Shown here one piece after another: positions 10,061-27,648 of a stretch of DNA of 64,000 bases. The notes beneath the pieces were generated by a model, which was given only the letters and a program-made list of their open reading frames with translations, was not told the DNA's origin and searched no databases. Origin of the DNA: Desulfosoma sp. (lineage in GTDB: Bacteria > Desulfobacterota > Syntrophobacteria > Syntrophobacterales > DSM-9756); assembly GCA_037481835.1 (NCBI GenBank), contig JBBFKW010000003.1, positions 67,462 to 131,461 on the forward strand, given 5' to 3'. The position numbers and the translations under genes are program-made. Position 1 is the stretch's first letter. The number at the start of each line of letters is the position of its first letter.

Positions 10061-10137
10061 GACTGACCTCCTTACCCATATGTCGATCCTGAAAAGTCCC
10101 TGCGCCCTTCCCTATGAAGGCGCGCACAAACCCCAGG

Positions 10138-10153
10138 ATCAATTTCGGTGCCA
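10138..10153 (-). promoter_or_regulatory. Putative sigma54 promoter of adh
   Basis: Minus strand TGGCAC-CGAAA-TTGAT (correct -24/-12 spacing, -12 GA instead of GC), next to a sigma54 activator gene. Confidence 0.55.
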
Positions 10154-10313
10154 GTCCGAAAAACAAGGAGATAACAATAGATTCGATCGCCGAAGGGTCG
10201 AAGCGCCCCCCTGGATTGGGTCTTTTCGCCGCACGCCCGAACCTCCCCAAGGGGCACGGCGAGTCGGATAAACGCAGGGTAGTAAAGGCATAGAAAAGAG
10301 GAAAGCTCTCTAT

Positions 10314-10359
10314 GGGGCGTTTTGTCCCCTGGTCATGCCCTTGTGGGTCACAACGACAC
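10314..10359. promoter_or_regulatory. Two imperfect palindromes, candidate upstream activator sites
   Basis: GGGGCGTTTTGTCCCC and GGGTCACAACGACAC, about 160-210 nt upstream of the sigma54 site. Confidence 0.35.
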
Positions 10360-10388
10360 ATTGAGAGCCGTGGGCACGATGGGCGGGT

Positions 10389-11732
10389 TTATTCTTCCAG
10401 ACCGTAGGCTTTAATCTTGCGGTAGAGGGTCTTTCGACTGATCCCGAGCGCCCGTGCCGCGTCGCTTCGATTCCCGGAAAAGAGGGCCAAGGCCTTTTGA
10501 ATGTGCAGGCGTTCCACCTCGTGAAGAGGGAGGCATCTGCGTGGATCGGCCCCGTATGGCCGTAGGTCGCCCGTCAGTTCCCGAGGCAGGCTGTGGGGCA
10601 GGATCACGGTGCTTTCCGAAAGGATTATGCACCGTTCCAGCACGTTTCGCAGTTCTCGAACATTGCCGGGCCAGTCGTAGGCCATGAGATGCACCAAAGT
10701 TTCGTCGGCAAGACGGTAAGGATGAGCCGGGGGACTCAAAAGGCCGAGGAGGTGCTCCACAAGGACCGGGATGTCCTCCCGCCGTTCCCGAAGTGGCGGC
10801 AAATGAAGGTGAAAGACGTTGAGTCGATGGTACAGGGCTTCATGGAATCGGCCCGCCCGCATCTCCGCCGAAAGGTCCCGATGGGTCGCGAAAAGAAAGC
10901 GCACATCCACGCTGCGCTCCTGCTGTTCGCCCACGCGCCGAAACTTCTTGGTTTCCAGCAAGCGCAGCAGCGCGCCCTGGAGTTCCAGGGGCATGTCCCC
11001 GATTTCGTCAAGGAAGAGGGTCCCGCCTTCCGCCAAACTCACGAGACCCTCCCGGGTTTCCAGCGCCCCAGTAAAAGCCCCCTTCACGTATCCGAAAAGT
11101 TCGCTGCGCAAAAGATCCTTTTGCAGAGACGCACAGTTCTTGACGATGAAAGGCCCCTTGGCGCGCCCGCTCAGGGCATGGATGTTCCGGGCCGCCACGT
11201 CCTTCCCCGTGCCCGATTCCCCCGTAATGAGTACCGAGGTGTCATGGGGGGCCACTTTTTCGATGAGCTTGATAATGCGGCGTATCGCCTCGGAACGGCC
11301 GACGAGCCGTGGGGCCTCGGCGCCTTTTTGTCCCTCGAGCAGCCGTCGGTTATGTTTTTTGAGGCACACCCGTTCATAGGCTTTGTCCAAGACCACATCC
11401 AGCCGTTCCAGGTTGAAAGGCTTGGTAATGTAGTCGTAGGCGCCCATTTTCATGGCCTTAAGGGCGCTTTCCACGGTCCCGTAGCCGGTGATCATGATGA
11501 CTTCGGCGTCGGGGAGTTTTTCCTTCAGGGAATTCAAAAGATCCAGCCCGTCGCCGTCCGGGAGGCGAATGTCGGCGACGATCACGTCGAAGGTTTCGCG
11601 ATCTGCCATGGCCAAAGCGGCGACCGCGCTTTCCGCCGTGGCGATGTGACGGTGTGGAGCGGCCAATTCCCTTTCCGCAAGTTTGCGGATGGATGCTTCG
11701 TCGTCGATGACAAGAACGCGCATGGGAGTCAT
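10389..11732 (-). CDS. Sigma54-dependent response regulator (NtrC family)
   Basis: Receiver (VIDDE, DIRLP, KPF), AAA+ (GESGTGKD, SELFGYVKGAFTGA, LFLDEIG, WPGNVREL), Fis-type HTH. Confidence 0.95.
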   Translation of the reverse strand: MTPMRVLVIDDEASIRKLAERELAAPHRHIATAESAVAALAMADRETFDVIVADIRLPDGDGLDLLNSLKEKLPDAEVIMITGYGTVESALKAMKMGAYDYITKPFNLERLDVVLDKAYERVCLKKHNRRLLEGQKGAEAPRLVGRSEAIRRIIKLIEKVAPHDTSVLITGESGTGKDVAARNIHALSGRAKGPFIVKNCASLQKDLLRSELFGYVKGAFTGALETREGLVSLAEGGTLFLDEIGDMPLELQGALLRLLETKKFRRVGEQQERSVDVRFLFATHRDLSAEMRAGRFHEALYHRLNVFHLHLPPLRERREDIPVLVEHLLGLLSPPAHPYRLADETLVHLMAYDWPGNVRELRNVLERCIILSESTVILPHSLPRELTGDLRPYGADPRRCLPLHEVERLHIQKALALFSGNRSDAARALGISRKTLYRKIKAYGLEE

Positions 11733-12922
11733 GACATCTTCCCGAAAACGACTCGAAAGACGGATCCTTCCCCCTGTCGGCTTTCCACTTCGATGGAGGC
11801 GTCATGGGCTTGGGCGATGGTATAGCACATGGACAGGCCCATACCCGTGCCGCGACCGACGGGTTTGGTGGTGAAGAACGGATCGAAGATTTTGTCGAGA
11901 TCCTTGGGGGCGATGCCACAGCCCGTGTCCCGGACTTCAAGGAACACGTGGTCTTCCCCGCGGATTCCCGTGCGTACGGTGATCGTCCCCTTCGTGTCGG
12001 CCACGGCGTCAATGGCGTTGAGCAGCAGGTTGAGCAGGAGCTGCTTGATTTCGGAAGGCGTCCCGCGAATGGGGGGCAGATTGGGTGCGCATTCCTGGTG
12101 TAGGCCGATGTGGGGATATTCTTTGAGTTTGTGCCGAATCAAGCGCACCGTGTCCTGGACGCAGCCGTTCAAGTCCACTGCGATCATGGTCCCTGAATGG
12201 GGGCGACTAAAGCTGAGGAGGCCCTGGACGATCTCCTGGCACCGGGCGCATTCGTCCAGGATGATCCCCATGTATTCTTCCAAGTCGGATCCAAAGTCTT
12301 CAGGGAGCCGATCCCGGACTTCAGGCAGCCGCTTTTTGATGGCCTGAGCAAAGCCCAGGATGGCTGTCAGGGGATTGTTGATTTCGTGGGCCACGCCCGC
12401 AGCCAACAACCCGACCGTGGACATCTTTTCCGCGTGGTTCAACTTCGCCTGGTATTCGCGCTCGAGGGTGACGTCCCTTTTCAAGAGGAGGACATGGCAA
12501 GGGCGTCCTTGGGAATCCCTGAGGGGCGACGCCGTGATCTCAAAATGACGGGTCACGTCCCCCACCTTGTAGATGTGTTCCTGGCGGCACAGCCGGTTGG
12601 TGCGGAAGGCGATTTCCGCAGGACAGGGGCGGCACGGTTCTTCCTGCTTTCGAAATACCCTGTAACACGCCCGTCCCACGGGGGAGCTTTCTCCAAAGAC
12701 GTCGTAATACACCCGATTGACGGAAGTAATGCGTCCTTTCGGCGTGATGACCGCCATAATGTCGGTGATGCCGTCCAGAATGGCTTGGATTTGCTGCCGC
12801 CGGCGCTCCAGTTCCACCGTGGAAGCGTGCAGCTGGGCGATCTTTTCTTGGGCTTCTCGAAAAAAGCCCAGCTTGGAATATTCGATGCCGATGAGGTCTT
12901 CCAGCTTGGGAGGGGGTTTCAT
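11729..12922 (-). CDS. PAS-domain sensor histidine kinase
   Basis: Starts MKPPPKLEDL at 12922 (TGATG overlap with the upstream gene); PAS-like region; H-box AHEINNPL, N-box, DTGCGI, FFTTK, GTGMGL. Confidence 0.92.
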   Translation of the reverse strand: MKPPPKLEDLIGIEYSKLGFFREAQEKIAQLHASTVELERRRQQIQAILDGITDIMAVITPKGRITSVNRVYYDVFGESSPVGRACYRVFRKQEEPCRPCPAEIAFRTNRLCRQEHIYKVGDVTRHFEITASPLRDSQGRPCHVLLLKRDVTLEREYQAKLNHAEKMSTVGLLAAGVAHEINNPLTAILGFAQAIKKRLPEVRDRLPEDFGSDLEEYMGIILDECARCQEIVQGLLSFSRPHSGTMIAVDLNGCVQDTVRLIRHKLKEYPHIGLHQECAPNLPPIRGTPSEIKQLLLNLLLNAIDAVADTKGTITVRTGIRGEDHVFLEVRDTGCGIAPKDLDKIFDPFFTTKPVGRGTGMGLSMCYTIAQAHDASIEVESRQGEGSVFRVVFGKMS

Positions 12923-14064
12923 CACCAAGCCTCCTCGCAGATGGACAAGAGATCCTCCCACGTGGCGGGTCTCGGGTTGGTGAGAAGGCACGCATCCTGG
13001 GCGGCCATGCGACATACCGTGGGCAGTTGGTCTCTGTCGGGGACCAGGTCGCGCAGGCGATGTTTCATGCCCAGAGAATGGAACAGGCTTCCCAGGTTTT
13101 CGATGCCCGCAAGAGCCGCCGCCCGCTCGTTGCGCCACTTTTTCCCGGTAAGAATTTTTCCGATTTGAGCCAATTTGGGCAAGGCATGGTCCAAGTTGAA
13201 TCGCATCACGGCCGGCAGCAGCACCGAATGGACCTCGCCGTGGAGGATGTCGAACATGCCGCCCAGGGAATGGGCCAGAGCATGGTCCGCCCCCAAACTG
13301 GCGTTGCTGAAAGCCATGCCTGCCGCCGTGCTCGCGATGCTCAAGGGCTCCAAGACGTCCAGGGATGGTTCCTGGGCCGCTTGAGGCAGATGCGCGGCAA
13401 TGATTTCGATGGCCTTGAGGGATTGCAGTTCGGTGAAAGGGGAGGCGATGACGGACACGTAAGATTCCACGGCATGGGCCAAGGCGTCGACGGCGGCGGC
13501 CAAGACGAGATGCTGGGGCTTGGTGACCAATAGCACCGGATCGATGATGGAAATGTTGGGCACCAGGGTGCGGCTGACGATGGTCATTTTGAGACGCCGG
13601 CGCGTATCGGTGATGATGGCGAACTGCGATATGTCGGATCCGCTTCCCGCCGTGGAAGGCAAAAAGACCATGGGAGGCAAGGGCCGGTGAATCCGGTTGG
13701 CTCCTTCGTAGTCGTGAATGGATCCGCCGTTTCCGGCCACAATGGCGATCCCTTTGGCGGCGTCCATGGGACTGCCGCCCCCCAGGGCGATGATCACATC
13801 GGCCTTCTGTTCGGCATAGAACAAAGCGCCGTGGGCCACCTGGGTGTCTCGGGGGTTGGAGACCACATCTTCGAAGTAGCACCATTGCAAGCCTTCCGCC
13901 GCAAGGACGTCGAAAAGGCGTGAGACCCACCCGGCTTCGCGAAGTCCGGGATCGCTCACCACCAAGGGCTTTTCAGCCCCGAGCCTTTTGGCGCAGAGCC
14001 CGGCGTATTTCAACGCGCCGCGCCCGAAGATGATTTCGGGAATGGAAAACTTGACGATGTCCAT
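12922..14064 (-). CDS. ercA: Fe-ADH-like protein, probably the ErcA-type regulatory paralogue
   Basis: GGGSPMD, PSTAGSGSD, DALAH, HALAH, LHG; translationally coupled to the kinase, as in the ErcA/ErcS arrangement. Confidence 0.75.
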   Translation of the reverse strand: MDIVKFSIPEIIFGRGALKYAGLCAKRLGAEKPLVVSDPGLREAGWVSRLFDVLAAEGLQWCYFEDVVSNPRDTQVAHGALFYAEQKADVIIALGGGSPMDAAKGIAIVAGNGGSIHDYEGANRIHRPLPPMVFLPSTAGSGSDISQFAIITDTRRRLKMTIVSRTLVPNISIIDPVLLVTKPQHLVLAAAVDALAHAVESYVSVIASPFTELQSLKAIEIIAAHLPQAAQEPSLDVLEPLSIASTAAGMAFSNASLGADHALAHSLGGMFDILHGEVHSVLLPAVMRFNLDHALPKLAQIGKILTGKKWRNERAAALAGIENLGSLFHSLGMKHRLRDLVPDRDQLPTVCRMAAQDACLLTNPRPATWEDLLSICEEAW

Positions 14065-14073
14065 GACGTGTCC

Positions 14074-15408
14074 TCATGAGTCCTTGTGGTCGTGCCGGGG
14101 CCCTGCCGTTTCATAGTATCGCCGGTAGAGCACGGCATTGGAAACCCCCAGGAAGTGGGCAAACAGGGTGGCGTGATTGCGGAGCGACGTCTTGAGCAGG
14201 CCTCCGGCGAGGTAACGGCGTGGAGAGGTCGGCAACGCATCGGGAACGACGAGGAGCCGGCCCAGGGGTCGGCACGAGCGCACAAAGTCCACATCTTCCA
14301 TGAGATAGGGCCGGCGGAAGCCTCCGACCGCATCAAAGGTATCCCTGCGGCAGAACATGCCTTGGTCGCCGTAGGGCAAACGAAACAGACGCGTTCTCAA
14401 ATTGGCCCAGGCCGCGATGGCGTTCAGAGCGCGGTTGGTAGGGGAGAAAGCCAGGCGGAAACAACCCAAGGCGAAACGTTCGTCCCGGGCGATGGTTCGC
14501 ACCTGGTAGGCCGCCGCAAAATTGGGAAGACAATCGTCGTGGAGAAACCAGAGAATCCTCCCGGGGCTCACTCGGACTCCGGCATTCATCTGCAGCCCGC
14601 GTCCCAGAGCGCTTTCGACCCACACAAGGCCGTTTGCCCGTTTGTTTTCCGAAAGGGGCGGCGAGGATGAGCCGTGGACGACGCACAGGGTATCCTGGGG
14701 CCAGAGGATCCCCTGGAGGGTCTGCAGCCACGGGCGCAGCGCCGCCCTGGGTGCCGTCGTGGGAACAATGACGGAGACGGGGTTCGAAAACGCCCAGTGG
14801 CGGTCCAGACAAGAAAGATCGTCCGGGCGGTCGATATCGGTCCGGACGGGCAAAAGGGCGGGAGGGAGGCCGAGGCGTTCCAGGGACGTTCGGGTTCGTT
14901 CAAAGACATCGGCCGTTCCCCAGGAAGGGGAGGTGAAAATGGGCGGACACGGCCGACGAAGCCCGATGGCGTAAAAACCGCCGTCCCGGGCCGGGCCCAG
15001 CACGGCGTCCCGGTAATGCAAGCTTTGGAAGGCGTTTCGAAGATCCTTCGCGCTGAGATCGCAAAGATCGGATCCCACGAGAACGACCGTGCCGTAGCCT
15101 CGATGGAAAAGTTCTTGAAAGGCTTCGGCCATGCGTCGGCCCAGGTGTTCCCCCTTTTGGGCAACGACCGGCCACGGGACGCCGAAACGCCGGCGGAAGG
15201 CTTCGAGGTGTTCCTCCGCGCTTACGGCCACAAAGACGGCCGTGTCCGGGCAGAGCCGGCAAAAATCATGGACGACGCCCAAGGTGTAGCGAAGGAGCTT
15301 TTCGTAAAGGTCGCAGGCCGCTTGCGCGCCCAGGTCCGGCACCAGCCGTGTCTTGACCTTTCCCGGTTCGGGGTGGCGCGCGAAAACGATGAGGGCTTTT
15401 CGATCCAT
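14074..15408 (-). CDS. Fusion of a DUF2064/CofC-like (TIGR04282-type) transferase and a GT2 (TIGR04283-type) glycosyltransferase
   Basis: N-half FARHPEPGKVKTRL, QKGEHLGRRM, VGSD, GPARDGGFY, DIDRPDD; C-half VSVIVPT, GRGLQMNAG, PYGDQGMF, LMEDVDF, TSPRRY. Confidence 0.85.
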   Translation of the reverse strand: MDRKALIVFARHPEPGKVKTRLVPDLGAQAACDLYEKLLRYTLGVVHDFCRLCPDTAVFVAVSAEEHLEAFRRRFGVPWPVVAQKGEHLGRRMAEAFQELFHRGYGTVVLVGSDLCDLSAKDLRNAFQSLHYRDAVLGPARDGGFYAIGLRRPCPPIFTSPSWGTADVFERTRTSLERLGLPPALLPVRTDIDRPDDLSCLDRHWAFSNPVSVIVPTTAPRAALRPWLQTLQGILWPQDTLCVVHGSSSPPLSENKRANGLVWVESALGRGLQMNAGVRVSPGRILWFLHDDCLPNFAAAYQVRTIARDERFALGCFRLAFSPTNRALNAIAAWANLRTRLFRLPYGDQGMFCRRDTFDAVGGFRRPYLMEDVDFVRSCRPLGRLLVVPDALPTSPRRYLAGGLLKTSLRNHATLFAHFLGVSNAVLYRRYYETAGPRHDHKDS

Positions 15409-17372
15409 CAGTACGCGAGACTACCCAGGGAACGCATGATGAGCGTAAAACCCATGGCGAGCATGCCCATGAGGCCCATGCCGCATGAAAATCCGGCAAG
15501 GAGCACCGGGGCGTACTGGCGCCAGGCCAACCCGTACTTCTTGGAAAAGTAATAGCGGCCGAGGAAGGCCCCGATGATTTCCAGGAAGATGCCGTGAGGC
15601 GTGGACTGGCCCAGGCCTCGCACGATCCCGTAAATGAGCAGGATGGGCCAGTGGAAGAGGCTCAGGACGGCATAGACCACGGTGCCCAGCCCCAGGCCCC
15701 AGAGGACGTATTGGCCCTTCAGGGCTTCGAAGAAAGGGGAATAGCCTTCCAGAGTGGCGCTTTGCAGGAGCAGCGTGTTTAGCGCCTGCAGGTGCCAGAG
15801 TTCTTGGGCGTACGGGTACTGGCTCGACGGGATGGGGGCCAGTCTCCAGATGTATTGGGAGAACAGAAGGCTGGCGATCATGACCACCGGAAAGACCAAG
15901 ATTTCCGCCTTGATGATGCTTCGAAAGCTCGTGCCCGTCAATTCGATTTCCCGCCAGCGCACCGTGGCCTTTCCGTAATTGTGAAAGGGGATGGGCGCAT
16001 ACCAAATGCCGATCCCATGGTAGCCGAAAAACTTGGACGCGGCGATGAAACTGGCTTCCCGCACCATGGGAAGACTCACGAACTGGCCCGTGATGCCCTC
16101 CATGCGCGCTGAGACGTAACTGATGAACGGCGTATACACGAACCCGTAGGCCACGAGAAAGATCCACGGGAAGCCCGGCACGAGGATGGAACACAGGACC
16201 ACATAGGCAAGGGTTGAAGCCACATAGATGGCGATGGCGATCCACACGCTGAAATCGCCTCGACCCGGCGGCGGTTCGAAGAGCTTTTTCAGCCTCTCGC
16301 GAAGCGGTGCCATGGAATCAGAGCGCAGTCCTCGAAAAACCTGGACGATGCCGATCACCGCGATGGCCAACCCGATGCCGATGCCGAAGCTCATGTAAAA
16401 GTCGAAATTATTGGCGAAAACCGTGTCCACCGTGCCCATGCCCTTATGCCAGCGCTGCAGGATCCCGTGGTGGTACAAAACGGGATTGGCCGCCAAGGTG
16501 ATGAGGAACCCGATGGCGCCACCCATGACGGCCCAGAAGGGCAACACCATGCCGATGAAGAGCAGGCCCAGGTCCAACTGAATGCCGGTGGCCACCGCCG
16601 GCAGAATGTCTTCCGTCACCGGGGTGAGCTCGATCCAGGGAATGGGAAGGAGCCGCACGGGTTCCGAGAGGATCACCCCGGAGGCGGCCGGAAGGAGGAC
16701 GTAGATCGACCCGAAACACAACCCGATCATGCCGCCGATGGAAAACAGCCGCCATTTCCAGCCCGTCTCCTTCTTTTCCGTGGATTCGGCCAGGGCCATG
16801 TTGCCCAAGGCCCCAACGGGCGCCATGGGAAAGGGGAGCTTTTCCACATCGGAGGTCAGCCGGTACAGGGCATAGCCCAAACCGAAATGATCCACGGCCT
16901 GGATGAGCTCAAAGCCCACCATGAGCAGAATGGGCACCAGCCAATCCCTGTGGAAGAAGGTCCTTTCGATGAGGGATTCGGACCCCGGCTGGGGCGCCAC
17001 CCAGGAGGGGATGTACTGGGTGAGCCCGAGCATCCTGGCCGCTTCCGACTGCACCAGGTATTGGTTCCACAGAAGGCCGGAAAACGGCGAGGCCATGGCG
17101 GCTCCGGCCATGTAGTAAAGCACGAAAATTTCCTGCTGGTTCAGCCTCGTGTAGGCCCGTTTGGCCACTTCCGCAAAAAGGATAATCGTCACCCACCGCG
17201 CCGCCGGGCCGATCCCGGTGCCGATCACCAGCCCCAGGTACATGGACCCGGGCATCATGAGAAAGCCGATGAAGATGGCTCCGATGACGGATTTCCATCC
17301 GAAGCCGTCGCGGAATTCTTCCGGGGGCTTCAGAAGATCCCGATATTCTTTAAGTTCCTTGTCCTCGATCAT
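15408..17372 (-). CDS. Polytopic membrane protein, OPT/peptide-transporter-like
   Basis: Starts MIEDKELKEYRD; 654 aa with many hydrophobic segments; EKLPFPMAPVG motif resembles the OPT family; TGATG overlap with the downstream gene. Confidence 0.75.
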   Translation of the reverse strand: MIEDKELKEYRDLLKPPEEFRDGFGWKSVIGAIFIGFLMMPGSMYLGLVIGTGIGPAARWVTIILFAEVAKRAYTRLNQQEIFVLYYMAGAAMASPFSGLLWNQYLVQSEAARMLGLTQYIPSWVAPQPGSESLIERTFFHRDWLVPILLMVGFELIQAVDHFGLGYALYRLTSDVEKLPFPMAPVGALGNMALAESTEKKETGWKWRLFSIGGMIGLCFGSIYVLLPAASGVILSEPVRLLPIPWIELTPVTEDILPAVATGIQLDLGLLFIGMVLPFWAVMGGAIGFLITLAANPVLYHHGILQRWHKGMGTVDTVFANNFDFYMSFGIGIGLAIAVIGIVQVFRGLRSDSMAPLRERLKKLFEPPPGRGDFSVWIAIAIYVASTLAYVVLCSILVPGFPWIFLVAYGFVYTPFISYVSARMEGITGQFVSLPMVREASFIAASKFFGYHGIGIWYAPIPFHNYGKATVRWREIELTGTSFRSIIKAEILVFPVVMIASLLFSQYIWRLAPIPSSQYPYAQELWHLQALNTLLLQSATLEGYSPFFEALKGQYVLWGLGLGTVVYAVLSLFHWPILLIYGIVRGLGQSTPHGIFLEIIGAFLGRYYFSKKYGLAWRQYAPVLLAGFSCGMGLMGMLAMGFTLIMRSLGSLAY

Positions 17373-17413
17373 GGGACGTCTCCGCGTGCCGTTCCCTGCA
17401 CCGCCCGAAGGAC

Positions 17414-19396: not shown

Positions 19397-19399
19397 GGC

Positions 19400-22300
19400 C
19401 TATCCTTGCCCTGTGAAGGAAGCCGGCACGGGAGCGGGTGCCGCTTCGGGGCCGAGGGGTGCGGCCCAGCGGGTGTAAAGGGCCTTGGTGTTCGCGTCCA
19501 GGAGCCGCCACAAAAGCATCTGCTTGCGCATGACCTTGATGAAATTGCGGTTGGCGCGCTGCCATGCCGTGCGTTCCCCGGAAAGGCGGATCATCTGCAG
19601 CGCCACTTCCATGTAGCCGGGATCGTCCGCCGACGGGCAGCAGTGCAGATGGAGCCTCTGCTTGATGCCGAAATCGAAGGGGGCCAGCCACACGTTGGCG
19701 TAGAGCCACATGCAGACCGGTTCGGGAAGGTGCGTGCCGTCGCTTTCCGGGGCGGCCGGGGCGAGGTGCACGTCGTCCACGATGAAGGGCCCTTGAGCCA
19801 CATCCTGGTGATCCCGGATGAAAGCGCTCAGAAAGGCCATGATCCCCGGTTCTTCTTCGGGCTTGAGAAGGAAGGGCAGATGGAGTTCCAGGAGATCCCC
19901 TTGGGCCTTGGGCACGGTCCAGGTGCGGGTCACATCGGGCATGGCCAAGGCGGCGGCCACGCGCGCCGGATACAAGGACGCCAAGAGCACCACGGAAAAG
20001 ACGAGGACCATGCACGCCACGCTGGCCAGGGAGGAGTAGTTGAAGGTAAGTTCGGAAAAGAGCTGGGTTTTTCCCAAGAAGTGGGCTGTGAGCTGGGCGA
20101 GGATGTAGCCGATGACCGTGGAAAGGACCGCTAGGGAGAGGGCTTCCACGATGAACAAGAATCCCACGTGGTTGGGGGCGAGGCCTACGGAGGTGTAGAC
20201 GCCGATTTCCGATTTGCGCTCATGAACATGGCCGATCATGGTGTTTAGGCAGATGAAAACCACGATGAGCATGGGCACGAGCAGATTGGCCACTCCTTGG
20301 TAGCGCAGGGTCTTGGCCGCCGAATGAAAATACGTGACGTCGGCTCCGACGTAGAGGGGGTAGGTGAGCCTGCGGGAAAGGTCGTCGGCGATGTCCAAGG
20401 CCGTTTCGGACGTGTCGGTAATGAGCGCGACCGCCCGCAACGTGCCTCCCAAGGAAAGGCACGTGTGGTGCGGAATCAGAACGACGGCATCGCCCGCCGC
20501 CGAGCGGAACCGTTCGACCATGGGCCCGACGGCCTCCCCGGCTTGCATGGCTTCCGCTTCGGCCTCGGAAAGGTCTTCGTCCGGGGAAATTTCTAAGTAA
20601 GCGGGTTTGACGGAGGTGCCGTCCAGGTCGGTAAAAGTTTCCAGGTGGTTCGGATCGAAAAAACCGATGACGGTCAAGGGGACTTCCCACAAATGGACGA
20701 CCGCCCCCACGTCCCGGGTGGGCTCCAGACCCAGCTTTCGTGCCAAACTCGTGGGAAGGAGCACCGCCCGGCCGTCTTCTTCGGTGAACCACCGGCCCGC
20801 TGTGACGATCTTTTTCAGGGCCTCTGGCGCATGGGGGCCGACCCCGAGGACCCCTTCCACGGGGACCACCTCGTTACGGGCGGCGACGGATGCGACGGCC
20901 CGAAGGGATGGATGAGAGGGGTCGATCCAGGAACGGGGCCACAGCACGGCCCGATTCCCGTAGCGTGCCGCAAGACTTTCCAAGGAGACGGACGTCAGAG
21001 GCCTCCACAGATGATGGTGCAGAAGCACCCCCACGTAGGCCGGGGTTTCCCCTACCCGGGTCATGGTCGTCTTCGTTAGGCTCCGGACGTTGGTAAACGA
21101 CATGATGGTGAAGGTGAGGATGATCAGGGTCACCGAAGTGAGTGCCGTGCGAAGGCGCCTTCGATTCAGGTTGGAGGCTCCGATGGCGAACCCGGCCCCG
21201 AAGGCCTGCCACTTGTTGACACTTTCCTTGGCCGCCGCCGGAGAGCCGCCGCCCGCCGACGTCCCTCCCATTTCTTGTTCGAATCGCATGAAGAGGATCC
21301 AGGATACCAAGACGCTCAGCGCCACGATAAAAAAGGCGATGATGACCACCATGGGGTTGTAGGTCAGGCGGAAAGCCGGGTGCAGGGCGCGGATGGTGAG
21401 GATGGTGGCGATGAGAAGCAGGAAAAAGGCCGTGATCTGCTTGTAGATGTTTCGAAAGCAGAAGAGATAGCGTTCCAGGCAGTAAGCGAAAGGCACAAAG
21501 AGGGCGATGAAGAACATGACCCCGCCCAAGACGTCCCTTTGGGTGTTTTCGATTTCGTTGTAGACGGAATTGAGTTTGGCCCAGGCGGACACGGTCCTGT
21601 CCCAGGCGAGGCTGTGGCGCAGGGCGGTTTCATCCTCGCGCGCCCGCTCCCGCTCTTCCAAGGCGTCCCGGTACAGGTTTTCCAAATAGCGGTTACTGAT
21701 GCCATGGGCGATGAGATTTTTCAGGCGCTCGCCCACCAAGTGGACCAGATCTTCCACGACCCGCTCAGGGGTTCGCGTGATCACGGAAGGCTCCCCGATA
21801 GCGTAGCCCAAGCCCATGGGGTTTTCGGCATCGCCTTTGATGAGCAGGAATTCCTTGCGCAGCAGCGTGTCGGAAAGGATGACCTTGAATCGGGCGCCCC
21901 TTTCCAAAAACAGGGACACGGCGAAAGTGTCCCGGCCGTCCACGCGGCTGTACCAATACCGCAATGGACGCGCTCCCGTAACCCCGTCCAACACGGTGAT
22001 CTTGGTCAGGTAATCCAGGCGCTGGGGGTCCAAGACGCCCACGATGTCCGTCTGCCGGCAGGGAAACATGACCAGCGTCGTGGAAGCGATGCGCCCCTTG
22101 ATGTTCAGGCGGTAACTATCCTTGGAGGTCTGCACCTTGTCGGCGACCCAGCGGATCTTTCCCGTTTCGGGATCGACCCCATAGGGTTCCAGGATGAGCT
22201 TTTGGAAGGCGACCCGCTTGTTGGCCACCGCCGGGATGAAAAAGGAGCCGTCGCGAAAGGTCATGGCCCGAACGAGGGAATTGCCTTGCAAAGCGCAGAC

Positions 22301-24184
22301 AATGGTTCCCGGAGCCGGCTTGTCCGGGAAGAGTTCCCCTTGCCGGATGAACATGGCGCGGCCTTCCACCGACGCCAGGCCTTCAAAGCCCATCCGGCAG
22401 CTTTCCTTGAGTTTGGGATGGCCGAGGACCTTGGCCAAAATGGCGGGGAAGGCGTCTTGGTAGGCTCTGACGCCGTCCCAATCCATCCGGGTCTTGACGT
22501 CTTCGGGCGTTTCCCAGAGGGTGCGCCGGTTGTTGGCCCCGGTGAGGGCGAAAGACGGACAGCCGGTCAAGGCGCCGATATCGCACGCCATGCAGTGGGG
22601 CCCTTGGCTTTCCACGGCGCGGGGTGCCGTGTCCGCACCATGGCGGGCCGTTTTTTCAAAAAGAGGGGCCCGTCCCGTGTGCCGGGCCACCTCTTCCGCC
22701 GCCTGGCGGAAAAAATCGGCCAGAGCCACATTGCGAACGAGCCGGTACACCTGCTCGCGCAAGGGAAAGGTGCCACCCCATTCGCTGAGGGTGACCCAGC
22801 GGGAGTGGGACGACAGGGACAGGCCGATGTGGAGCACCCTTTCGAAATCGTCCGCCAGGGAGCGCAAATCCCCCCACGATTTGACGGCCTTCAGCCGGGC
22901 TTGGGTTTCCGCGCGTTCCTTTTGCAGGTCTCCGAGCCCCGAGCGGATGAGATCCACGGCCAAAGCGCGTTCCTCCGGCCCCAGTTCCTCGGGCGATTCC
23001 TTCCAGCTTAGGCGCCGATACACCAGCGCCTGCGCCGCCAGGGCCTTTTCATGGGGGGCCTCGCGGCTCAAACGATCCGCTTCGTCCTTGGCCCGTTCCA
23101 CGACATGGGACCACACTCGGGACAGGGCGCGTGGATCCTCGGGGTCGGGCTGCATGGGGTCGGGTCGGGAAAGGAGCCCGAGGAGTTCCTGCAGGTCTTT
23201 TTGTCTGTCCGAAAGGGTGCGCTGTTCTTGCCGGAGGGTGCGCCGAGGTGCTTCCAAAGCCCACAGGAAATGGCGCGTGCCCGAAAGGCCCTGGCCGTGG
23301 CCGGATACCGCCGCAAGAAGAACGCTTCGCGCCGGCGGATCGGCCGCCAGGACCTCGGCCAGATGGACCAGCACGGCCGCCGAAAGAGCCTGGTCGGCGC
23401 CCGGAGCCAACCCGACCACGTGGGATGCCGCATCGTATGGCGCTTCGATAATGACGAGTTCTTTGGCGAGATCCGGCGAGGATCCCGGAATCAGCCCGTA
23501 GACGTTGTGCGCCGTTCGGTGTTCCCAGTGGCTGCGAACGTATGCGTGCGCCCGCGCGTTTCGGGATGCGGCCCGGCGCAGGGCCGCGCCCACTTCGGGC
23601 GGAACGTAAAACCTCGGAAAATCCAAAGGGGTCGGGATGTCCTTCACGGCGAAGTCGTCCCGGCTGTCTTCCGCCCCGCCGAGGAAGATGACGGCCTTGG
23701 CCCCCATCTGGGCGGCGAACCACCAGTTTTCCCCGGAAGAGACGTCCATGAGCACGAGAGCGTCTTGGATGGTGTGCCCGTCGAATCGGTGCAACGCCCC
23801 GTCCCCGACGTCCACCAAGGGACCTTCAAGGCCCGAAGGCGGCGTTTGAGACAGCATGGCCATGTTGGGAGCCCAGGGAAAGAGGGGGTAGGTTTCCGAT
23901 CCCACGGTGATCCTCCCCTCGTCCAAAACGGGAACGGGCACAAAGAAAGCCTGGCGGCCGACGGGTTTGAGGCCCGCACGTTCAAAGGCTTGGGCGATGT
24001 AGTCGGCGGCGGCCTCGCAGCCCGGAGATCCTGTGGAACGGTCGGTGGTTTGGGTGAGGGCTTCCAGGTGGCGAAAGAGGGGGTCTTCCGCCCGGGCGAC
24101 GGCGCATGCGGAAAAAACGCCCATGAGGACGGCGAGAAGGACGGCGGAAACCCGAAATGTGCGGCGTCGTGCCTTCATGTTCAC
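19400..24184 (-). CDS. 1594-aa protein: signal peptide, PA-inserted M28-peptidase-like domain, TM block, MacB-like periplasmic domain, FtsX-type permease
   Basis: N-terminal signal (ARA|ED), DRSTGSPG, HNVYGLIPG, APGAD; LNRRRLRTALT and ERKSEIGVYTSVGLAP FtsX motifs. Confidence 0.85.
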   Translation of the reverse strand: MNMKARRRTFRVSAVLLAVLMGVFSACAVARAEDPLFRHLEALTQTTDRSTGSPGCEAAADYIAQAFERAGLKPVGRQAFFVPVPVLDEGRITVGSETYPLFPWAPNMAMLSQTPPSGLEGPLVDVGDGALHRFDGHTIQDALVLMDVSSGENWWFAAQMGAKAVIFLGGAEDSRDDFAVKDIPTPLDFPRFYVPPEVGAALRRAASRNARAHAYVRSHWEHRTAHNVYGLIPGSSPDLAKELVIIEAPYDAASHVVGLAPGADQALSAAVLVHLAEVLAADPPARSVLLAAVSGHGQGLSGTRHFLWALEAPRRTLRQEQRTLSDRQKDLQELLGLLSRPDPMQPDPEDPRALSRVWSHVVERAKDEADRLSREAPHEKALAAQALVYRRLSWKESPEELGPEERALAVDLIRSGLGDLQKERAETQARLKAVKSWGDLRSLADDFERVLHIGLSLSSHSRWVTLSEWGGTFPLREQVYRLVRNVALADFFRQAAEEVARHTGRAPLFEKTARHGADTAPRAVESQGPHCMACDIGALTGCPSFALTGANNRRTLWETPEDVKTRMDWDGVRAYQDAFPAILAKVLGHPKLKESCRMGFEGLASVEGRAMFIRQGELFPDKPAPGTIVCALQGNSLVRAMTFRDGSFFIPAVANKRVAFQKLILEPYGVDPETGKIRWVADKVQTSKDSYRLNIKGRIASTTLVMFPCRQTDIVGVLDPQRLDYLTKITVLDGVTGARPLRYWYSRVDGRDTFAVSLFLERGARFKVILSDTLLRKEFLLIKGDAENPMGLGYAIGEPSVITRTPERVVEDLVHLVGERLKNLIAHGISNRYLENLYRDALEERERAREDETALRHSLAWDRTVSAWAKLNSVYNEIENTQRDVLGGVMFFIALFVPFAYCLERYLFCFRNIYKQITAFFLLLIATILTIRALHPAFRLTYNPMVVIIAFFIVALSVLVSWILFMRFEQEMGGTSAGGGSPAAAKESVNKWQAFGAGFAIGASNLNRRRLRTALTSVTLIILTFTIMSFTNVRSLTKTTMTRVGETPAYVGVLLHHHLWRPLTSVSLESLAARYGNRAVLWPRSWIDPSHPSLRAVASVAARNEVVPVEGVLGVGPHAPEALKKIVTAGRWFTEEDGRAVLLPTSLARKLGLEPTRDVGAVVHLWEVPLTVIGFFDPNHLETFTDLDGTSVKPAYLEISPDEDLSEAEAEAMQAGEAVGPMVERFRSAAGDAVVLIPHHTCLSLGGTLRAVALITDTSETALDIADDLSRRLTYPLYVGADVTYFHSAAKTLRYQGVANLLVPMLIVVFICLNTMIGHVHERKSEIGVYTSVGLAPNHVGFLFIVEALSLAVLSTVIGYILAQLTAHFLGKTQLFSELTFNYSSLASVACMVLVFSVVLLASLYPARVAAALAMPDVTRTWTVPKAQGDLLELHLPFLLKPEEEPGIMAFLSAFIRDHQDVAQGPFIVDDVHLAPAAPESDGTHLPEPVCMWLYANVWLAPFDFGIKQRLHLHCCPSADDPGYMEVALQMIRLSGERTAWQRANRNFIKVMRKQMLLWRLLDANTKALYTRWAAPLGPEAAPAPVPASFTGQG

Positions 24185-24265
24185 CCGGAGAATGTCTTTG
24201 TGCCCTCTTCACAAGGGCTTTGATTTACGGGCTGAGGGCCGAAACCCGCTCTGCGGCGATAAGCC

Positions 24266-25000
24266 CTAAAGGACCTGGCCTATGGAAACCTGGAGCTTTT
24301 CCCGATCCTCGATGCGGTCGATGCGGCCGTCCCGAATCCAGACGACGCGGTCCGACACGTTGATCATCTTGATGTCGTGTGTGGCCGAAATGATCGTAAC
24401 ACCCCGCTCTTGGGACAGTTCCTTGAGAAGCGAAATGATTTCTTCCCCGGTGCTCAAATCCAGGTTTCCCGTGGGTTCGTCGGCCAGGATGATGGCCGGA
24501 TCGTTGGCCAGGGCCCGGGCGACAGCCACCCGCTGCTGCTGGCCGCCGGAAAGTTCGGCCGGCTTGTGCTGAAAGCGCTCCGCCAGTCCCACGAGCCTGA
24601 GCAGTTCCATGCCCTTGTCCATGTACTCGTCGCGGCCCATGCCGGCGAAGATCATGGGCAGCGTCACGTTTTCGATGGCGGTCATGACCTGAATGAGGTT
24701 GAAGGTCTGGAAGATGTAGCCGATCTTTCGGCACCGAAGCCATGCCAATTCATAGGCGTCCAGTTGGGCCACGTCCACTTCGTCAATGAAGACGCGGCCG
24801 GAGGTGGGCTTGTCCAGAGCGCCGATCATGTTAAACAAAGTGGATTTTCCCGATCCGGACGGGCCCATGATGGACATGTATTCGCCAGCCTTGATTTCCA
24901 AGGTCACCCCGCGGAGGGCATGGACCTCTTCCTGCCCCATGCGGAAGACCTTGGTCACGTCCACCAGCCGAACCACATTGTGCGCGCCGTTTCCGCTCAT
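24266..25000 (-). CDS. ABC transporter ATP-binding protein (LolD/MacB type)
   Basis: GPSGSGKST, LSGGQQQRVAVARAL, LADEPTGNLD, ATHD. Confidence 0.95.
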   Translation of the reverse strand: MSGNGAHNVVRLVDVTKVFRMGQEEVHALRGVTLEIKAGEYMSIMGPSGSGKSTLFNMIGALDKPTSGRVFIDEVDVAQLDAYELAWLRCRKIGYIFQTFNLIQVMTAIENVTLPMIFAGMGRDEYMDKGMELLRLVGLAERFQHKPAELSGGQQQRVAVARALANDPAIILADEPTGNLDLSTGEEIISLLKELSQERGVTIISATHDIKMINVSDRVVWIRDGRIDRIEDREKLQVSIGQVL

Positions 25001-25005
25001 AGGGG

Positions 25006-25662
25006 CTAAGGCTCCGATCTCAAGGCGATGGCCGGTTGCATCCGAGCCGCAACCCAGGCCGGGTACATGACGCCGATGAGGCTTAGGGCGACCGCCAGGG
25101 CCGACGATTTAACCAGCAGGGCGCCGAGGCCGATCGCCGGAAGGTGGGTGATAATGGGGGCGCCGAAGCGCGCCCACAGGGTCACGACGGCCGTACCCAC
25201 TCCCAAGACGCTTCCTGCCGCACCGCCCAGGACGCCCTGATAGGCGGCCTCCAACACGAAGAGCTTGATGACGAAACTGTCCAAGGCGCCCAAGCATTTC
25301 AAAGTGCCGATTTCCCGGAAACGCTCCGTTACGGCCATGAGCTGGGCGTTGACGATGCCGACGGCGCAGACCAGCAGGGAAAGCACCACGAGCCATCGGT
25401 CCTTGGCTGTGCTGCCGAAGTGGCCGTCCTGGGGAGTAAAGCCGGCCGAAAGGATCTTGTCCTGCAAAGCGGGCTCGGCCGCCGGCCACACCCCTTCCAG
25501 GACGGCATAAACGGCGAAGGTGTAGGAAAGAAAGGCGACGGCGAGGACGAGCGTGCTCGTTGTGATCATGGAGCGAAAGAAGCGCGCCCGCAGGGCGTTG
25601 AAGGAAATGCGGATCACCTGGGACCATGGGAGGACGATCTGTCGGTCGATGCTCTTGGCCAT
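25006..25662 (-). CDS. Small FtsX-like ABC permease
   Basis: Four TM segments; VTERFREIGTLKCLGA; YPAWVAARMQP. Confidence 0.85.
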   Translation of the reverse strand: MAKSIDRQIVLPWSQVIRISFNALRARFFRSMITTSTLVLAVAFLSYTFAVYAVLEGVWPAAEPALQDKILSAGFTPQDGHFGSTAKDRWLVVLSLLVCAVGIVNAQLMAVTERFREIGTLKCLGALDSFVIKLFVLEAAYQGVLGGAAGSVLGVGTAVVTLWARFGAPIITHLPAIGLGALLVKSSALAVALSLIGVMYPAWVAARMQPAIALRSEP

Positions 25663-25718
25663 TTATCCGTCACTCGCGGGGCTGCGGACCAAGGACGAAG
25701 AAACCCGTGGCCTTTTCT

Positions 25719-26843
25719 TTAAGCTCTCGAGGCGAAGTTTTCAATGGCCCGAACCGTCTCAAGGGCTCCTTCGGTGCGAAGCGGCTGAACCGAAGGCCGC
25801 GGGGAAGACAAGGTCTCTTGGATTTGGGCGGCGAGCCTTTCGGGCTCCAAGGACCGAATGACGCGGAGCACCCCCCGGGATTCCAGCCGGTCGGCCCGAA
25901 GGGCCTGTTCCCGGTTTTGGGGAAAGGGGTACACGAGGGCGGTGACGCCCGAAGCCAGGATGTCCATGCAGGTGTTGTAGCCTGCCATGCTGAGAGACAG
26001 CTCGGCCTGGGCCAATTCCTTCAAGAACTCATGGGAAAAGGGGCGCCACACAATGCGGGGATCGGCTGCGGCACTCTCCTTCAGCGCCTCTCGGTCTTGA
26101 GGTTCCATGAACGGGCCTTCGTGGACCTGCAGGCGCATGTGGGGGTCCCCAAGCCTGGAGAAGGCGTGGAAGACGGCCTCGATAAAATCGATGCCGACCC
26201 TGCCGCCTCCCGTGCTGAGAACGATCCGCCCCCGGACTTTTGGGGGTGAGGGATTCGGCAGGGACCGGGTCACGTAGCCCGTGTAATGCACCGGAGGGCG
26301 GATGTCGGCGATGCGCCGGAAGGTTTCGTCGAGTCGCACGCAGGCCGGGTCGGCGTGGACCAGGATGAGGTCGAAATATCGGTTGACCAGCGAGAGCACC
26401 TTTTCTTCGTAGGCTTCCGGGTCGGCCTTTTCCACCAAGATGTCCCGAAGACTGCAGACCACGAGGGCTCGATGAGTGGAAGCTGCGTTTTTCTCGAGCA
26501 GGGGGATGAGCTCGAACTGGAAGCGTTTTCGGCCGAACGGGAAAAGTTCGATGAGGAGCACATCCGGCCTCACGGACTTCCAGAGGTCGACAAGGATCCC
26601 CGTGCGCCGTGCCTGGACCTGCCGGATGTCGCCTGCGGCCGTCTCCAGGTTTCGGAACTCGGGATCCATCCGCAAGGGGGGCAGGGCGATGCGCCGCACG
26701 TGGGCCGGGGCACGAAACCCGGGCAGAGGGTCGCCGCCTTCCACGAAAAAGACCGAGTGCCGGGAAAAAGCCGCGGCGATTTCCATGCTTCGAAGGAAAT
26801 GCCCGATACCGAGCACATACTGGCAGTAGTGAAGGATCTTCAT
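25719..26843 (-). CDS. GT-B fold glycosyltransferase (GT28 C-terminal / COG4671-like)
   Basis: MKILHYCQYVLGIGHFLRS, ELFPFGR, SLRDILV, TGGGRVG, SMAGYNT; ATGA overlap with the upstream gene. Confidence 0.85.
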   Translation of the reverse strand: MKILHYCQYVLGIGHFLRSMEIAAAFSRHSVFFVEGGDPLPGFRAPAHVRRIALPPLRMDPEFRNLETAAGDIRQVQARRTGILVDLWKSVRPDVLLIELFPFGRKRFQFELIPLLEKNAASTHRALVVCSLRDILVEKADPEAYEEKVLSLVNRYFDLILVHADPACVRLDETFRRIADIRPPVHYTGYVTRSLPNPSPPKVRGRIVLSTGGGRVGIDFIEAVFHAFSRLGDPHMRLQVHEGPFMEPQDREALKESAAADPRIVWRPFSHEFLKELAQAELSLSMAGYNTCMDILASGVTALVYPFPQNREQALRADRLESRGVLRVIRSLEPERLAAQIQETLSSPRPSVQPLRTEGALETVRAIENFASRA

Positions 26844-27481
26844 GGACCATCCGTTCCCGAACCCAGGGGGGACGGCACGCGAAGGGCTTCCCCAGAGAGC
26901 ACCCGGCGGAGCGTTTCCGTGAATTGGAGAAAAAGGGCCGTGGGATGGCGCCGCCCAAGGCGATCCAGGCTGGAGAACATTTGGTGCCGAAGCTTCAGGG
27001 ACAGTTCCACCTGCACGCCCATGCCCGCGCGACCCCGATTGCATAGGTTTTCCGGCTGAGTGCCATGGAAGAGGGGATGCGCTGCGACGGTAAAACCCGC
27101 AATCGTAAGGGCTTCGGCGCACAGGTCCCGCAGGCGGGTGTCGAGTCCCCCGAGGAAGACGTCAGCTTGGTCATGAGTGCAGCCGTGGATCGTTATGACT
27201 TTCCAGGAAGCGGTCGCAAGGGTCAGGGCCGCGGGCTCGTCGAAACGAGTGCTGGTGATGTGCAAGACGGCGTTATGCTTTCTTTTCCGTCCATCCAAGT
27301 GATAAAAGGAATGGAACCCTCGCGCGATGGCTCGGGCCGCCTCCGAGGTCCCCGGTTCGATGCCGCCGCCGTGGGGAGCCATAACCGCCAGGCCGGAACG
27401 GCCGGCCTGCCATTCGACGACGAAGTCGCGGCCGGGGTTTTCCTGGAGAAGGAGGGCTGAAAAGGAGCGGTATCCGTTCAT
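26840..27481 (-). CDS. Poly-gamma-glutamate hydrolase family protein (PghP/YjqB-like)
   Basis: APHGGGIEPGTSE, HITSTRFDEP, ITIHG, PENLCNR, GVQVELS match the family signature. Confidence 0.85.
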   Translation of the reverse strand: MNGYRSFSALLLQENPGRDFVVEWQAGRSGLAVMAPHGGGIEPGTSEAARAIARGFHSFYHLDGRKRKHNAVLHITSTRFDEPAALTLATASWKVITIHGCTHDQADVFLGGLDTRLRDLCAEALTIAGFTVAAHPLFHGTQPENLCNRGRAGMGVQVELSLKLRHQMFSSLDRLGRRHPTALFLQFTETLRRVLSGEALRVPSPLGSGTDGP

Positions 27482-27648
27482 GACGCCTCAAGCCTGTGGA
27501 TGTGTGTCGCATGTTCGGGCATCGCCCATGCCGCCTCGTGCCCGTGGAAGCAAAGTGGGGTGTTCCGGCATCGCATCGTCTCCATTGTGCCGGGGAAAAG
27601 GGCCCGTGTAAAGCGTCCCGCCCACGGCTTCGCCTAGCGCTGGAAGAC

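Follow-up and report, generated by a model that had tools for sequence, protein, structure and literature searches.

The subject of this report is a 17-kb run of eleven co-directional genes, here called A to K, on the minus strand of a 64,000-nucleotide stretch of the genome of Desulfosoma sp. (GenBank assembly GCA_037481835.1, contig JBBFKW010000003.1, positions 67,462 to 131,461; hereafter the window). According to the open reading frame (ORF) listing and its translation, the run extends from position 27481 down to 10389. A preliminary description had taken the whole run to be one undescribed envelope system. Our analysis of gene order, gene distribution and protein relationships suggests that it is most likely three things lying side by side, namely a membrane module, sugar enzymes inherited with that module, and unrelated neighbours.

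Organization of the gene run

Gene A (26840-27481) encodes a PghP-family protein (Gamma_PGA_hydro, PF05908, E = 1.7e-56) and gene B (25719-26843) a GT-B glycosyltransferase (Glyco_tran_28_C, PF04101, 8e-10). They are followed by C (25006-25662), encoding a 218-amino-acid (aa) FtsX permease (PF02687, 3.8e-15), by D (24266-25000), encoding an ATP-binding cassette (ABC) ATPase (ABC_tran, PF00005, 1.6e-33), and by E (19400-24184), whose product is a giant permease of 1594 aa that matches FtsX (6.2e-12; above cut-off, as is the match in C), part of Peptidase_M28 (1.8e-6) and MacB_PCD (3e-5). The product of F (17414-19396) matches DUF6785 (PF20581, 3.9e-146) and DUF6784 (PF20580, 3.8e-33), while G (15408-17372) encodes a 654-aa polytopic membrane protein that is related to the OPT/YSL family through intermediate sequences. 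The remaining genes encode a fused glycosyltransferase-like protein (H, 14074-15408; TIGR04282 plus TIGR04283), an ErcA-like iron alcohol dehydrogenase (I, 12922-14064; Fe-ADH, NF041833), a PAS histidine kinase (J, 11729-12922; HisKA, HATPase and PAS domains), and a sigma-54 response regulator (K, 10389-11732; Sigma54_activat, 5.9e-65).

The junctions, read directly from the DNA, are tight. A and B overlap at an ATGA, G and H at a TGATG, I and J by 1 nucleotide (nt), and J and K by 4 nt, with gaps of 56 nt between B and C, 5 nt between C and D, 81 nt between D and E, 3 nt between E and F, 41 nt between F and G, and 9 nt between H and I. Gene content, domains, and the junctions listed in the preliminary description were all exactly reproduced from the ORFs, domain calls and DNA. 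Its remark that no clear terminator lies inside the run agrees with our terminator scan, which placed no terminator-like site in any intergenic gap; the minus-strand terminator-like sites are all within coding sequence. Between positions 9800 and 28200, hairpin-plus-T sites were over-represented (36 vs. 20.7 +/- 4.8 in shuffles). Those on the minus strand, all of them in membrane-protein genes, probably reflect T-rich hydrophobic codons rather than terminators.

Conservation of a five-gene membrane module

To place the run in its wider context, one genome per species was scanned for homologues of E, which has hundreds of full-length relatives (those of Desulfosoma being 76-86% identical to it). 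The scan gave more than 585 loci, and the best-scoring 80, all from Desulfobacterota, were taken with 10-kb flanks; all of their ORFs were then clustered and the clusters annotated. Adjacency was counted only at loci with enough flank. Results showed that E is accompanied by D at 70 of 72 loci, by C at 63 of 67, by F at 54 of 62, and by G at 48 of 53. B lies upstream of this module at 34 of 60 loci within 3.2 kb and at 34 of 47 within 8.5 kb. The corresponding counts were 17/53 for H, 4/60 for A, 4/53 for I, and 4/48 for K, and in Desulforhabdus amnigena the order C-D-E-F-G occurs with no other gene of the run beside it. Gene-neighbourhood analysis, which the preliminary description had put forward as a check, thus kept C-D-E-F-G together, with B as a frequent neighbour and A, I, and K as rare ones. 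At one locus, in Desulfococcus multivorans (positions 15017-17479 of the extracted sequence L082), genes for a SurA-like peptidyl-prolyl isomerase/chaperone and a MatE-family exporter are inserted between E and F.

The distribution of the genes was profiled in 301 genomes drawn evenly from Desulfobacterota, with E, F (as DUF6785), G, and B all searched in the same set; C and D were left out of this profiling because of their paralogues. Full-length E, DUF6785, and G were found in exactly the same 17 genomes, and B orthologues scoring above 300 bits were found in the same 17, the next-best genome reaching 176 bits. The chance of one such coincidence of profiles is ~4e-28, ignoring phylogeny. 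Since the 17 carriers fall in 10 families, the core is not confined to one clade. Moreover, all seven genomes that lack F-G beside E carry G elsewhere. The return of this gene order in dozens of genomes, together with the matching distribution of E, F, G, and B, puts the C-D-E-F-G arrangement far beyond chance and supports the earlier view of the five membrane genes as one unit.

The ABC motor and its giant permease

By hydropathy, the product of C has four transmembrane (TM) segments with only ~30 residues between TM1 and TM2, and it has no periplasmic domain. Over its C-terminal part, it shares 50% identity with the FtsX protein of a planctomycete operon. The best NCBIfam matches of D were the N-terminal part of MacB (234 bits), LolD (225 bits), and FtsE (210 bits), all below the equivalog cut-offs; D scored 207 bits against the DevA family. 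Topology analysis of E gave a signal anchor, ~850 periplasmic residues, three extra TM segments, a MacB/FtsX unit, and a cytoplasmic tail of ~190 residues. Within the MacB/FtsX unit, a TM segment at residues 1013-1031 is followed by ~265 periplasmic residues (~1032-1298) and a second TM segment at 1299-1317, there being three TM segments after the periplasmic part. C is the probable heterodimer partner of E, and we infer that C, E, and two copies of D make up a LolCDE-like hetero-permease motor, in which one ATPase gene serves two unlike FtsX permeases.

The Peptidase_M28 match of E scored 28.2 bits and covered only positions 1-77 of the 193 in the Pfam model. We therefore modelled the ectodomain (residues 1-887) with AlphaFold2 (AF2), using an alignment of 68 sequences, and obtained a model with a predicted local distance difference test score (pLDDT) of 91.5 and a predicted template modelling score (pTM) of 0.89. 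A Foldseek search of this head against the PDB returned first the PA-domain M28 aminopeptidases (2EK8, 3e-19; 6HC6, BSAP, 7e-19; 8ACR, PaAP, 3e-17) and next the transferrin receptor and glutamate carboxypeptidase II (GCPII), at ~1e-15. Based on the model, residues 31-884 are predicted to form a periplasmic pseudo-peptidase module of the PA/M28 fold, into which four helices are inserted (301-444) and which also has a beta-rich region (600-800). In the alignment, the position of the H-x-D motif reads P249-Y250-D251, the G-A-x-D motif reads G262-A263-D264-Q265, and the Glu-Glu motif is replaced around G295-H296. Q265 stands at the position of the zinc-ligand (bridging) Asp, where the family consensus is Glu. 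Thus, E appears to have lost the M28 metal and catalytic motifs where these are readable, the later ligands not being alignable, and replacement of the readable motifs fits a role in binding rather than catalysis. The M28 pseudo-peptidase that had been proposed within E is in this way supported by both fold and motifs.

F and G as probable relatives of OPT transporters

G has no direct match in Pfam or NCBIfam. When its profile was searched against 1.8 billion cluster representatives, 1041 clusters were recovered, and two of the representatives, P0212 and P0229, were matched over their full length (2e-69 and 6e-64). Both of these pass the OPT family model PF03169 (cut-off 25.8 bits), at 1.3e-17 (64.2 bits) and 3.5e-8 (33 bits), respectively. 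In addition, NCBI names the Desulfobacterota orthologues of G 'peptide transporter' or 'OPT/YSL family transporter'. By these sequence links through intermediates, G is classed as a divergent member of the OPT/YSL superfamily, and a very tightly conserved one, with 70-97% identity across the phylum. Some representatives of the G family (P0122, P0126, P0129, P0130, and P0145) are larger, at 860-1080 aa, and align in two separate segments, suggesting that a long piece has been inserted or fused behind residue ~545.

F and G are each ~655 residues long, and F has ~13 or more TM segments. No OPT match turned up when 20 homologues of F were compared with Pfam at E <= 10, and a sequence search of PDB chains with F and G returned nothing. 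Comparison of F and G profiles gave a probability of 0.2% with narrow alignments and 17% with a broader G profile. With both sides broad, hhalign aligned F with the G/OPT profile from end to end over 569 columns, at a probability of 67% in local and 96% in global mode. F is therefore probably a very distant relative of the OPT superfamily. The preliminary description had spoken of two OPT-like transporters; this holds for G, transitively through PF03169 and by the NCBI naming, whereas for F it comes down to a distant profile-profile match.

Characterised OPT members import peptides, glutathione or metal chelates, and the kinship of G with them favours a role of the module in uptake or salvage. 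F and G would then import peptides or glycopeptides, e.g., gamma-glutamyl or cell-wall-derived fragments, while the ABC motor with its dead peptidase head would capture a periplasmic substrate or control a periplasmic hydrolase, and a cytoplasmic pgh-like amidase (A), a deacetylase-like enzyme and transferases would process or re-use the imports. Such a role of the head has a precedent in FtsEX, a type VII ABC system that works through the catalytically dead peptidase EnvC, and the PA/M28 head of E does resemble peptide-binding enzymes as well as the receptor-like, catalytically dead transferrin receptor. However, no gene for a periplasmic hydrolase is conserved with the module, and the identity among G orthologues is unusually tight for a nutrient importer. 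On this and the evidence from the sugar enzymes given below, we regard uptake or salvage as the main alternative, but a less likely one.

Sugar enzymes inherited with the module

The closest relatives of B among solved structures are YjiC-type UDP-glycosyltransferases and MurG, matched through the C-terminal, donor-binding half only, and none of A, B, and H has a hydrophobic segment. B is accordingly predicted to be a soluble GT-B glycosyltransferase of the GT1/GT28 (MurG/YjiC-like) clade and, by its distribution, is a companion that the module always has in Desulfobacterota. A paralogue, B', is likewise present in 17 of 17 core-positive genomes. The clustered loci of Desulfarculia, Desulfobacterales, and Maridesulfovibrio contain an extended same-strand operon with the order GT28-like'-GT4-GT4-histidine phosphatase-B-polysaccharide-deacetylase-like-C-D-E-F-G (GT28 and GT4 being glycosyltransferase families), often followed by genes for a 205-aa signal-peptide protein, a ~324-aa protein, and a PqqD-like protein. 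None of the sugar enzymes of the extended operon reaches an equivalog-level name.

In the source genome, these genes are dispersed. A colinear B'-GT4-GT4 block (50-51% identity), followed by a metallophosphoesterase gene, lies on another contig (C16), and the orthologue of the deacetylase-like gene lies on a third (C7). Behind the metallophosphoesterase on C16 (L086, C16:27500-47400; 9252-16657), the next genes on the same strand encode a Ser/Thr protein kinase that ends in an Lcl_C domain and a BrkB-family membrane protein; they may connect the sugar block to regulation. On C7 (L087, C7:15000-34900), the deacetylase-like gene is directly upstream of genes for a radical-SAM protein and a DAO-family oxidoreductase, and a 1635-aa ORF with no Pfam match (14974-19881, minus strand) lies a few kb from it. 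One high-scoring copy of the deacetylase-like protein was found in all 17 carriers; in a subsample of 131 genomes, it occurred in 7/7 carriers and exceeded 75 bits in 0/124 non-carriers. The 205-aa exported protein was found in 13 of 17 carriers, a figure obtained from carriers alone.

One carrier (G213) has a split module that bears on the grouping of these genes. E-F are located at 5.16 Mb, whereas G, the 205-aa exported protein, the deacetylase-like protein, B, and B' are encoded within 24 kb at 1.46-1.49 Mb, 3.7 Mb away. This layout suggests that G stays with the sugar genes when the module splits. The four glycosyltransferases that are co-inherited with the core are also hard to fit into uptake or salvage.

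The protein encoded by A is a full-length match to PF05908 (191.2 bits, model positions 1-190 of 191) that contains the H-x4-E and TIHG motifs. Since it has neither a TM segment nor a signal peptide, it is probably cytoplasmic. PF05908 was detected in 12 of 17 core-positive but only 7 of 284 core-negative genomes (Fisher, 3e-13), or, by family, in 6 of 10 core-positive families vs. 3 of ~88. A cytoplasmic amidase enriched in this manner would suit uptake or salvage of gamma-glutamyl material. However, the family is missing from 5 of the 17 carriers, and A adjoins the module only in the source organism's own family. These data point to A as a putative PghP-family zinc amidase that is a lineage-specific, enriched but dispensable accessory. 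We also considered the pgh-like and deacetylase-like genes as alternatives that replace each other between lineages; this was rejected, as the deacetylase-like gene occurs in all 17 carriers, including the 12 with pgh. With respect to the earlier proposal that a pgh-like gene and sugar transferases are components of the system, B qualifies by its strict co-occurrence and frequent adjacency and H does not by its distribution (see below), while the pgh-like gene is enriched among carriers without being a constant or generally adjacent part.

The module outside Desulfobacterota

Relatives of G with 48-54% identity were found in Planctomycetota (three loci), Verrucomicrobiota, and Kiritimatiellota (together, the PVC loci). 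These loci encode one or more ATPases, a ~430-aa FtsX protein, an FtsX giant of 1641-1944 aa, G, a DUF6785/6784 protein, a ~325-aa protein, and a PqqD-like protein. The PVC giants align with residues 12-1570 of E (26% identity, 4e-127), D is 62-67% identical to its PVC copies, and F is 24-28% identical. Judged by these alignments, the modules are orthologous in at least four bacterial phyla. The sugar genes near the PVC loci encode GT4 and GT2 enzymes, MurJ, a PMT-family mannosyltransferase, and phosphomannose isomerase. In each of the planctomycete loci (L088, L091, and L092), the small FtsX gene and the giant are each preceded by an ATPase gene of their own, making two, and at two of the three a type I phosphomannose-isomerase-like gene lies just downstream on the opposite strand.

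The PqqD-like protein suggests a further explanation, maturation and export of a peptide resembling a ribosomally synthesized and post-translationally modified peptide (RiPP) or a glycopeptide. A PqqD-like chaperone would bind a small peptide, which after modification (glycosylation, in Desulfobacterota) would be exported by F/G together with the ABC motor. Genes for the PqqD-like protein and its ~325-aa partner are in the operon at 3/3 Planctomycetota loci, in Verrucomicrobiota, and at 15-18 Desulfobacterales loci, and MacB-type ABC systems are known to export peptides elsewhere. PqqD-like peptide binders in these operons would also suit uptake or salvage of peptides. However, a hidden Markov model (HMM) search of all ORFs of the source genome found neither a PqqD-like orthologue nor the ~325-aa partner, apart from one weak PqqD-like match of 29 bits on another contig, and the pair is also absent from the Syntrophobacteraceae loci. 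Furthermore, no radical-SAM, cyclase or other maturase gene is among the conserved neighbours. Maturation and export of such a peptide are therefore improbable.

Neighbouring genes H to K and the flanks of the run

The N-terminal half of H matches TIGR04282 at 194.9 bits (cut-off 134) and the C-terminal half TIGR04283 at 172.2 bits, just under the cut-off of 182. This family, with the pair fused or separate, was found in 170 of 301 genomes, yet it is absent from four core-positive genomes (G049, G087, G121, and G273) and nearly absent from G245, which is of the same genus. Consequently, H was rejected as a component on its distribution, despite its overlap with the stop codon of G. The H orthologues at two Syntrophobacteraceae loci (L013, 18783-20219; L007, 18808-20187) have an in-frame stop in the extracted sequence, which may reflect pseudogenisation or an error of frame or extension.

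I scored 427.4 bits against the ErcA model NF041833, under its equivalog cut-off of 550. I, J, and K are translationally coupled through overlapping stop and start codons, and only in Desulfosoma and Desulfacinum do they occur beside the module. Beyond the 3' end of K, a gap of 328 nt is followed by a second Fe-ADH gene, adh (8894-10060), and an aldehyde:ferredoxin oxidoreductase gene, aor. Within that gap, 78 nt before adh, lies a sigma-54-type -24/-12 element on the minus strand (TGGCAC-N5-TTGA, 10138..10153). It is the window's only match at <=1 mismatch; with 1.78 expected, the count itself is not significant and it is the position that is informative. The same scan found no sigma-54-type promoter upstream of A, where a sigma-70-like candidate, a consensus match only, lies ~100 nt from the gene on the minus strand (27584..27612; TTTACA-17-CACAAT, 9/12). 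The combination of a kinase, a sigma-54 regulator, adh, and aor is analogous to the ErcA setting, and these features fit I-J-K as a separate alcohol-responsive regulatory module for the downstream adh-aor genes.

These results bear directly on whether the entire run, with pgh at one end and the sigma-54 regulator at the other, is one co-regulated machine. The tight packing of the run, including the G/H overlap, the 9 nt between H and I, and the lack of an intergenic terminator-like site, is what such a machine would show, and the order G-H-I-J-K recurs in Desulfosoma and Desulfacinum. However, H is common in genomes at large and lacking in four carriers, I and K adjoin E at few loci, the sigma-54-type element stands downstream of K rather than before A, and Desulforhabdus amnigena keeps C-D-E-F-G alone. 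Inclusion of all eleven genes is thus very improbable, and this part of the preliminary description, together with its placement of the ercA-kinase-regulator genes in the system, is largely refuted.

On the other flank of the run, a DUF169 gene (27772-28605, plus strand) is divergent from A, and this neighbour is conserved at Desulfosoma and Desulfacinum loci (L002, L003, and L034). Further along the plus strand, a 395-aa ORF (29541-30728) has no Pfam match at E <= 1.

Comparison with known systems

LolCDE is a hetero-permease type VII ABC system, and the motor described here resembles it in having one LolD/MacB-type ATPase gene for two different FtsX-fold permeases and in the permease topology (N-terminus inside, TM1, periplasmic domain, TM2-4). 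Systems of the LolCDE type do not import solutes but work on molecules that sit on the outer side of the inner membrane. Unlike in LolCDE, C lacks a periplasmic domain, and E, at roughly fourfold the length of LolE, has gained a PA/M28 head, three TM segments and a cytoplasmic tail. Furthermore, the module is obligatorily partnered with two putative OPT-fold proteins and has no known LolA/LolB-like partner. FtsEX-EnvC, like FtsEX-PcsB/RipC/CwlO, offers an analogy in that a type VII ABC is paired with a peptidase-fold periplasmic part, and the head of E might be moved by ATP as EnvC is. In contrast to EnvC, the dead peptidase of E is of the M28/PA rather than the LytM/M23 type and is fused into the permease, and the module has sugar enzymes and putative OPT-fold proteins for neighbours, with no conserved amidase or other hydrolase partner.

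MacB-type ABC systems act on periplasmic or outer-leaflet substrates, and DevBCA exports glycolipids. MacAB-TolC and DevBCA-HgdD share with the module an ATPase of the same clade, as the MacB and DevA scores of D indicate, and, probably, a MacB-like periplasmic core in an FtsX permease. DevBCA is also a precedent for glycolipid export in which neighbouring transferases make the product. The module differs from both in having putative OPT-fold partners in place of a conserved membrane-fusion protein or TolC-like gene. G is similar in length and TM number to OPT/YSL transporters (PF03169, TC 2.A.67), and the alignment of F with the G/OPT profile spans both from end to end; however, neither reaches PF03169 directly, the two are an unlike pair tied to an ABC motor, and the conservation of G far exceeds that usual for nutrient permeases. 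Residues ~31-600 of E share the PA and M28 fold with the transferrin receptor, GCPII and the PA-domain M28 aminopeptidases (3e-19 to 1e-15), and its catalytic site is apparently lost as in the transferrin receptor, which suggests binding. Unlike those of the transferrin receptor and GCPII, the E head is bacterial, periplasmic, and fused to an ABC permease, and it has the insertion at 301-444 and the beta-rich region at 600-800. In a literature search, no paper with DUF6785 or DUF6784 was found and keyword searches returned nothing on such a system, in keeping with the earlier statement that no characterised system has this composition.

Proposed function

We propose, with a probability of roughly 55%, that the module is a LolCDE-like type VII ABC system which, coupled to putative OPT-fold proteins, handles a glycoconjugate or glycopeptide of the envelope, with the sugar enzymes co-inherited and H and I-J-K unrelated. 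On the inner side of the membrane, soluble GT-B enzymes, a phosphatase, and the deacetylase-like enzyme would assemble a glycoconjugate that contains amino sugar and is possibly attached to a lipid or peptide. Its path across the inner membrane would be formed by F and G, and the motor of C, two D, and E, by ATP-driven mechanotransmission through the periplasmic domains of E, would extract the product, hand it on, or position it in the envelope, the dead peptidase head serving as a binding platform. We give more weight to export or assembly than to salvage since four transferases are co-inherited with the core, G stays with them when the module splits, and G is unusually tightly conserved.

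Several points weigh against this proposal. The phyletic statistics ignore shared ancestry, and the importing activity of characterised OPT transporters favours uptake over export. Homology between F and G is only moderately supported, and an AF2 model of G, made with a 20-sequence alignment from the loci, was unusable (pLDDT 36.8). In E, the match to the MacB-type periplasmic domain PF12704 scored 24.8 bits, below the cut-off of 27, and the loss of catalytic residues was read from motifs, not from structural superposition. Nor does the module have a conserved companion among priming transferases, Wzx/Wzy, membrane-fusion proteins or outer-membrane components. Finally, the constant extras of the PVC loci are the PqqD-like peptide-binding protein and the ~325-aa cytoplasmic protein, not the B/GT4 set, and the PVC GT4 and GT2 genes were rejected as counterparts of the Desulfobacterota GT4 pair (GT4a/b) or of B as they are not orthologous; a peptide could be the common substrate.

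A more far-reaching version of the glycoconjugate proposal is that C-D-E-F-G represents a hitherto unrecognised class of envelope machine spread over several phyla, in which a LolCDE-like ABC motor with a dead PA/M28 head is physically coupled to an OPT-fold heterodimer that exports, rather than imports, a glycoconjugate or glycopeptide produced by the co-inherited transferases. We offer this only as a tentative idea.

Of the eleven genes, the candidate system thus retains six, the core five and one more. Carriers available in culture include Desulfacinum hydrothermale DSM 13146, Desulfacinum infernum DSM 9756, Desulfosoma caldarium, Desulforhabdus amnigena, and Desulfococcus multivorans. Its parts belong to known superfamilies, such as the type VII ABC systems, while the partner set is unprecedented. 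The defined group of partner enzymes, in which GT28-like and GT4 transferases (two of each) are joined by a phosphatase and a deacetylase-like protein, points to a sugar-containing product. If the proposal is correct, an undescribed membrane system would be present in ~6% of the sampled Desulfobacterota as well as in Planctomycetota, Verrucomicrobiota, and Kiritimatiellota, the giant gene being carried by more than 585 species genomes. It would join a type VII ABC mechanotransmitter to OPT-fold permeases, two kinds of protein not known to work together, and would add a large pseudo-enzyme domain to them. Should export in particular be the function, the module would be the first hybrid of an ABC system with a secondary-transporter fold and would include the first outward-acting relative of the OPT family.

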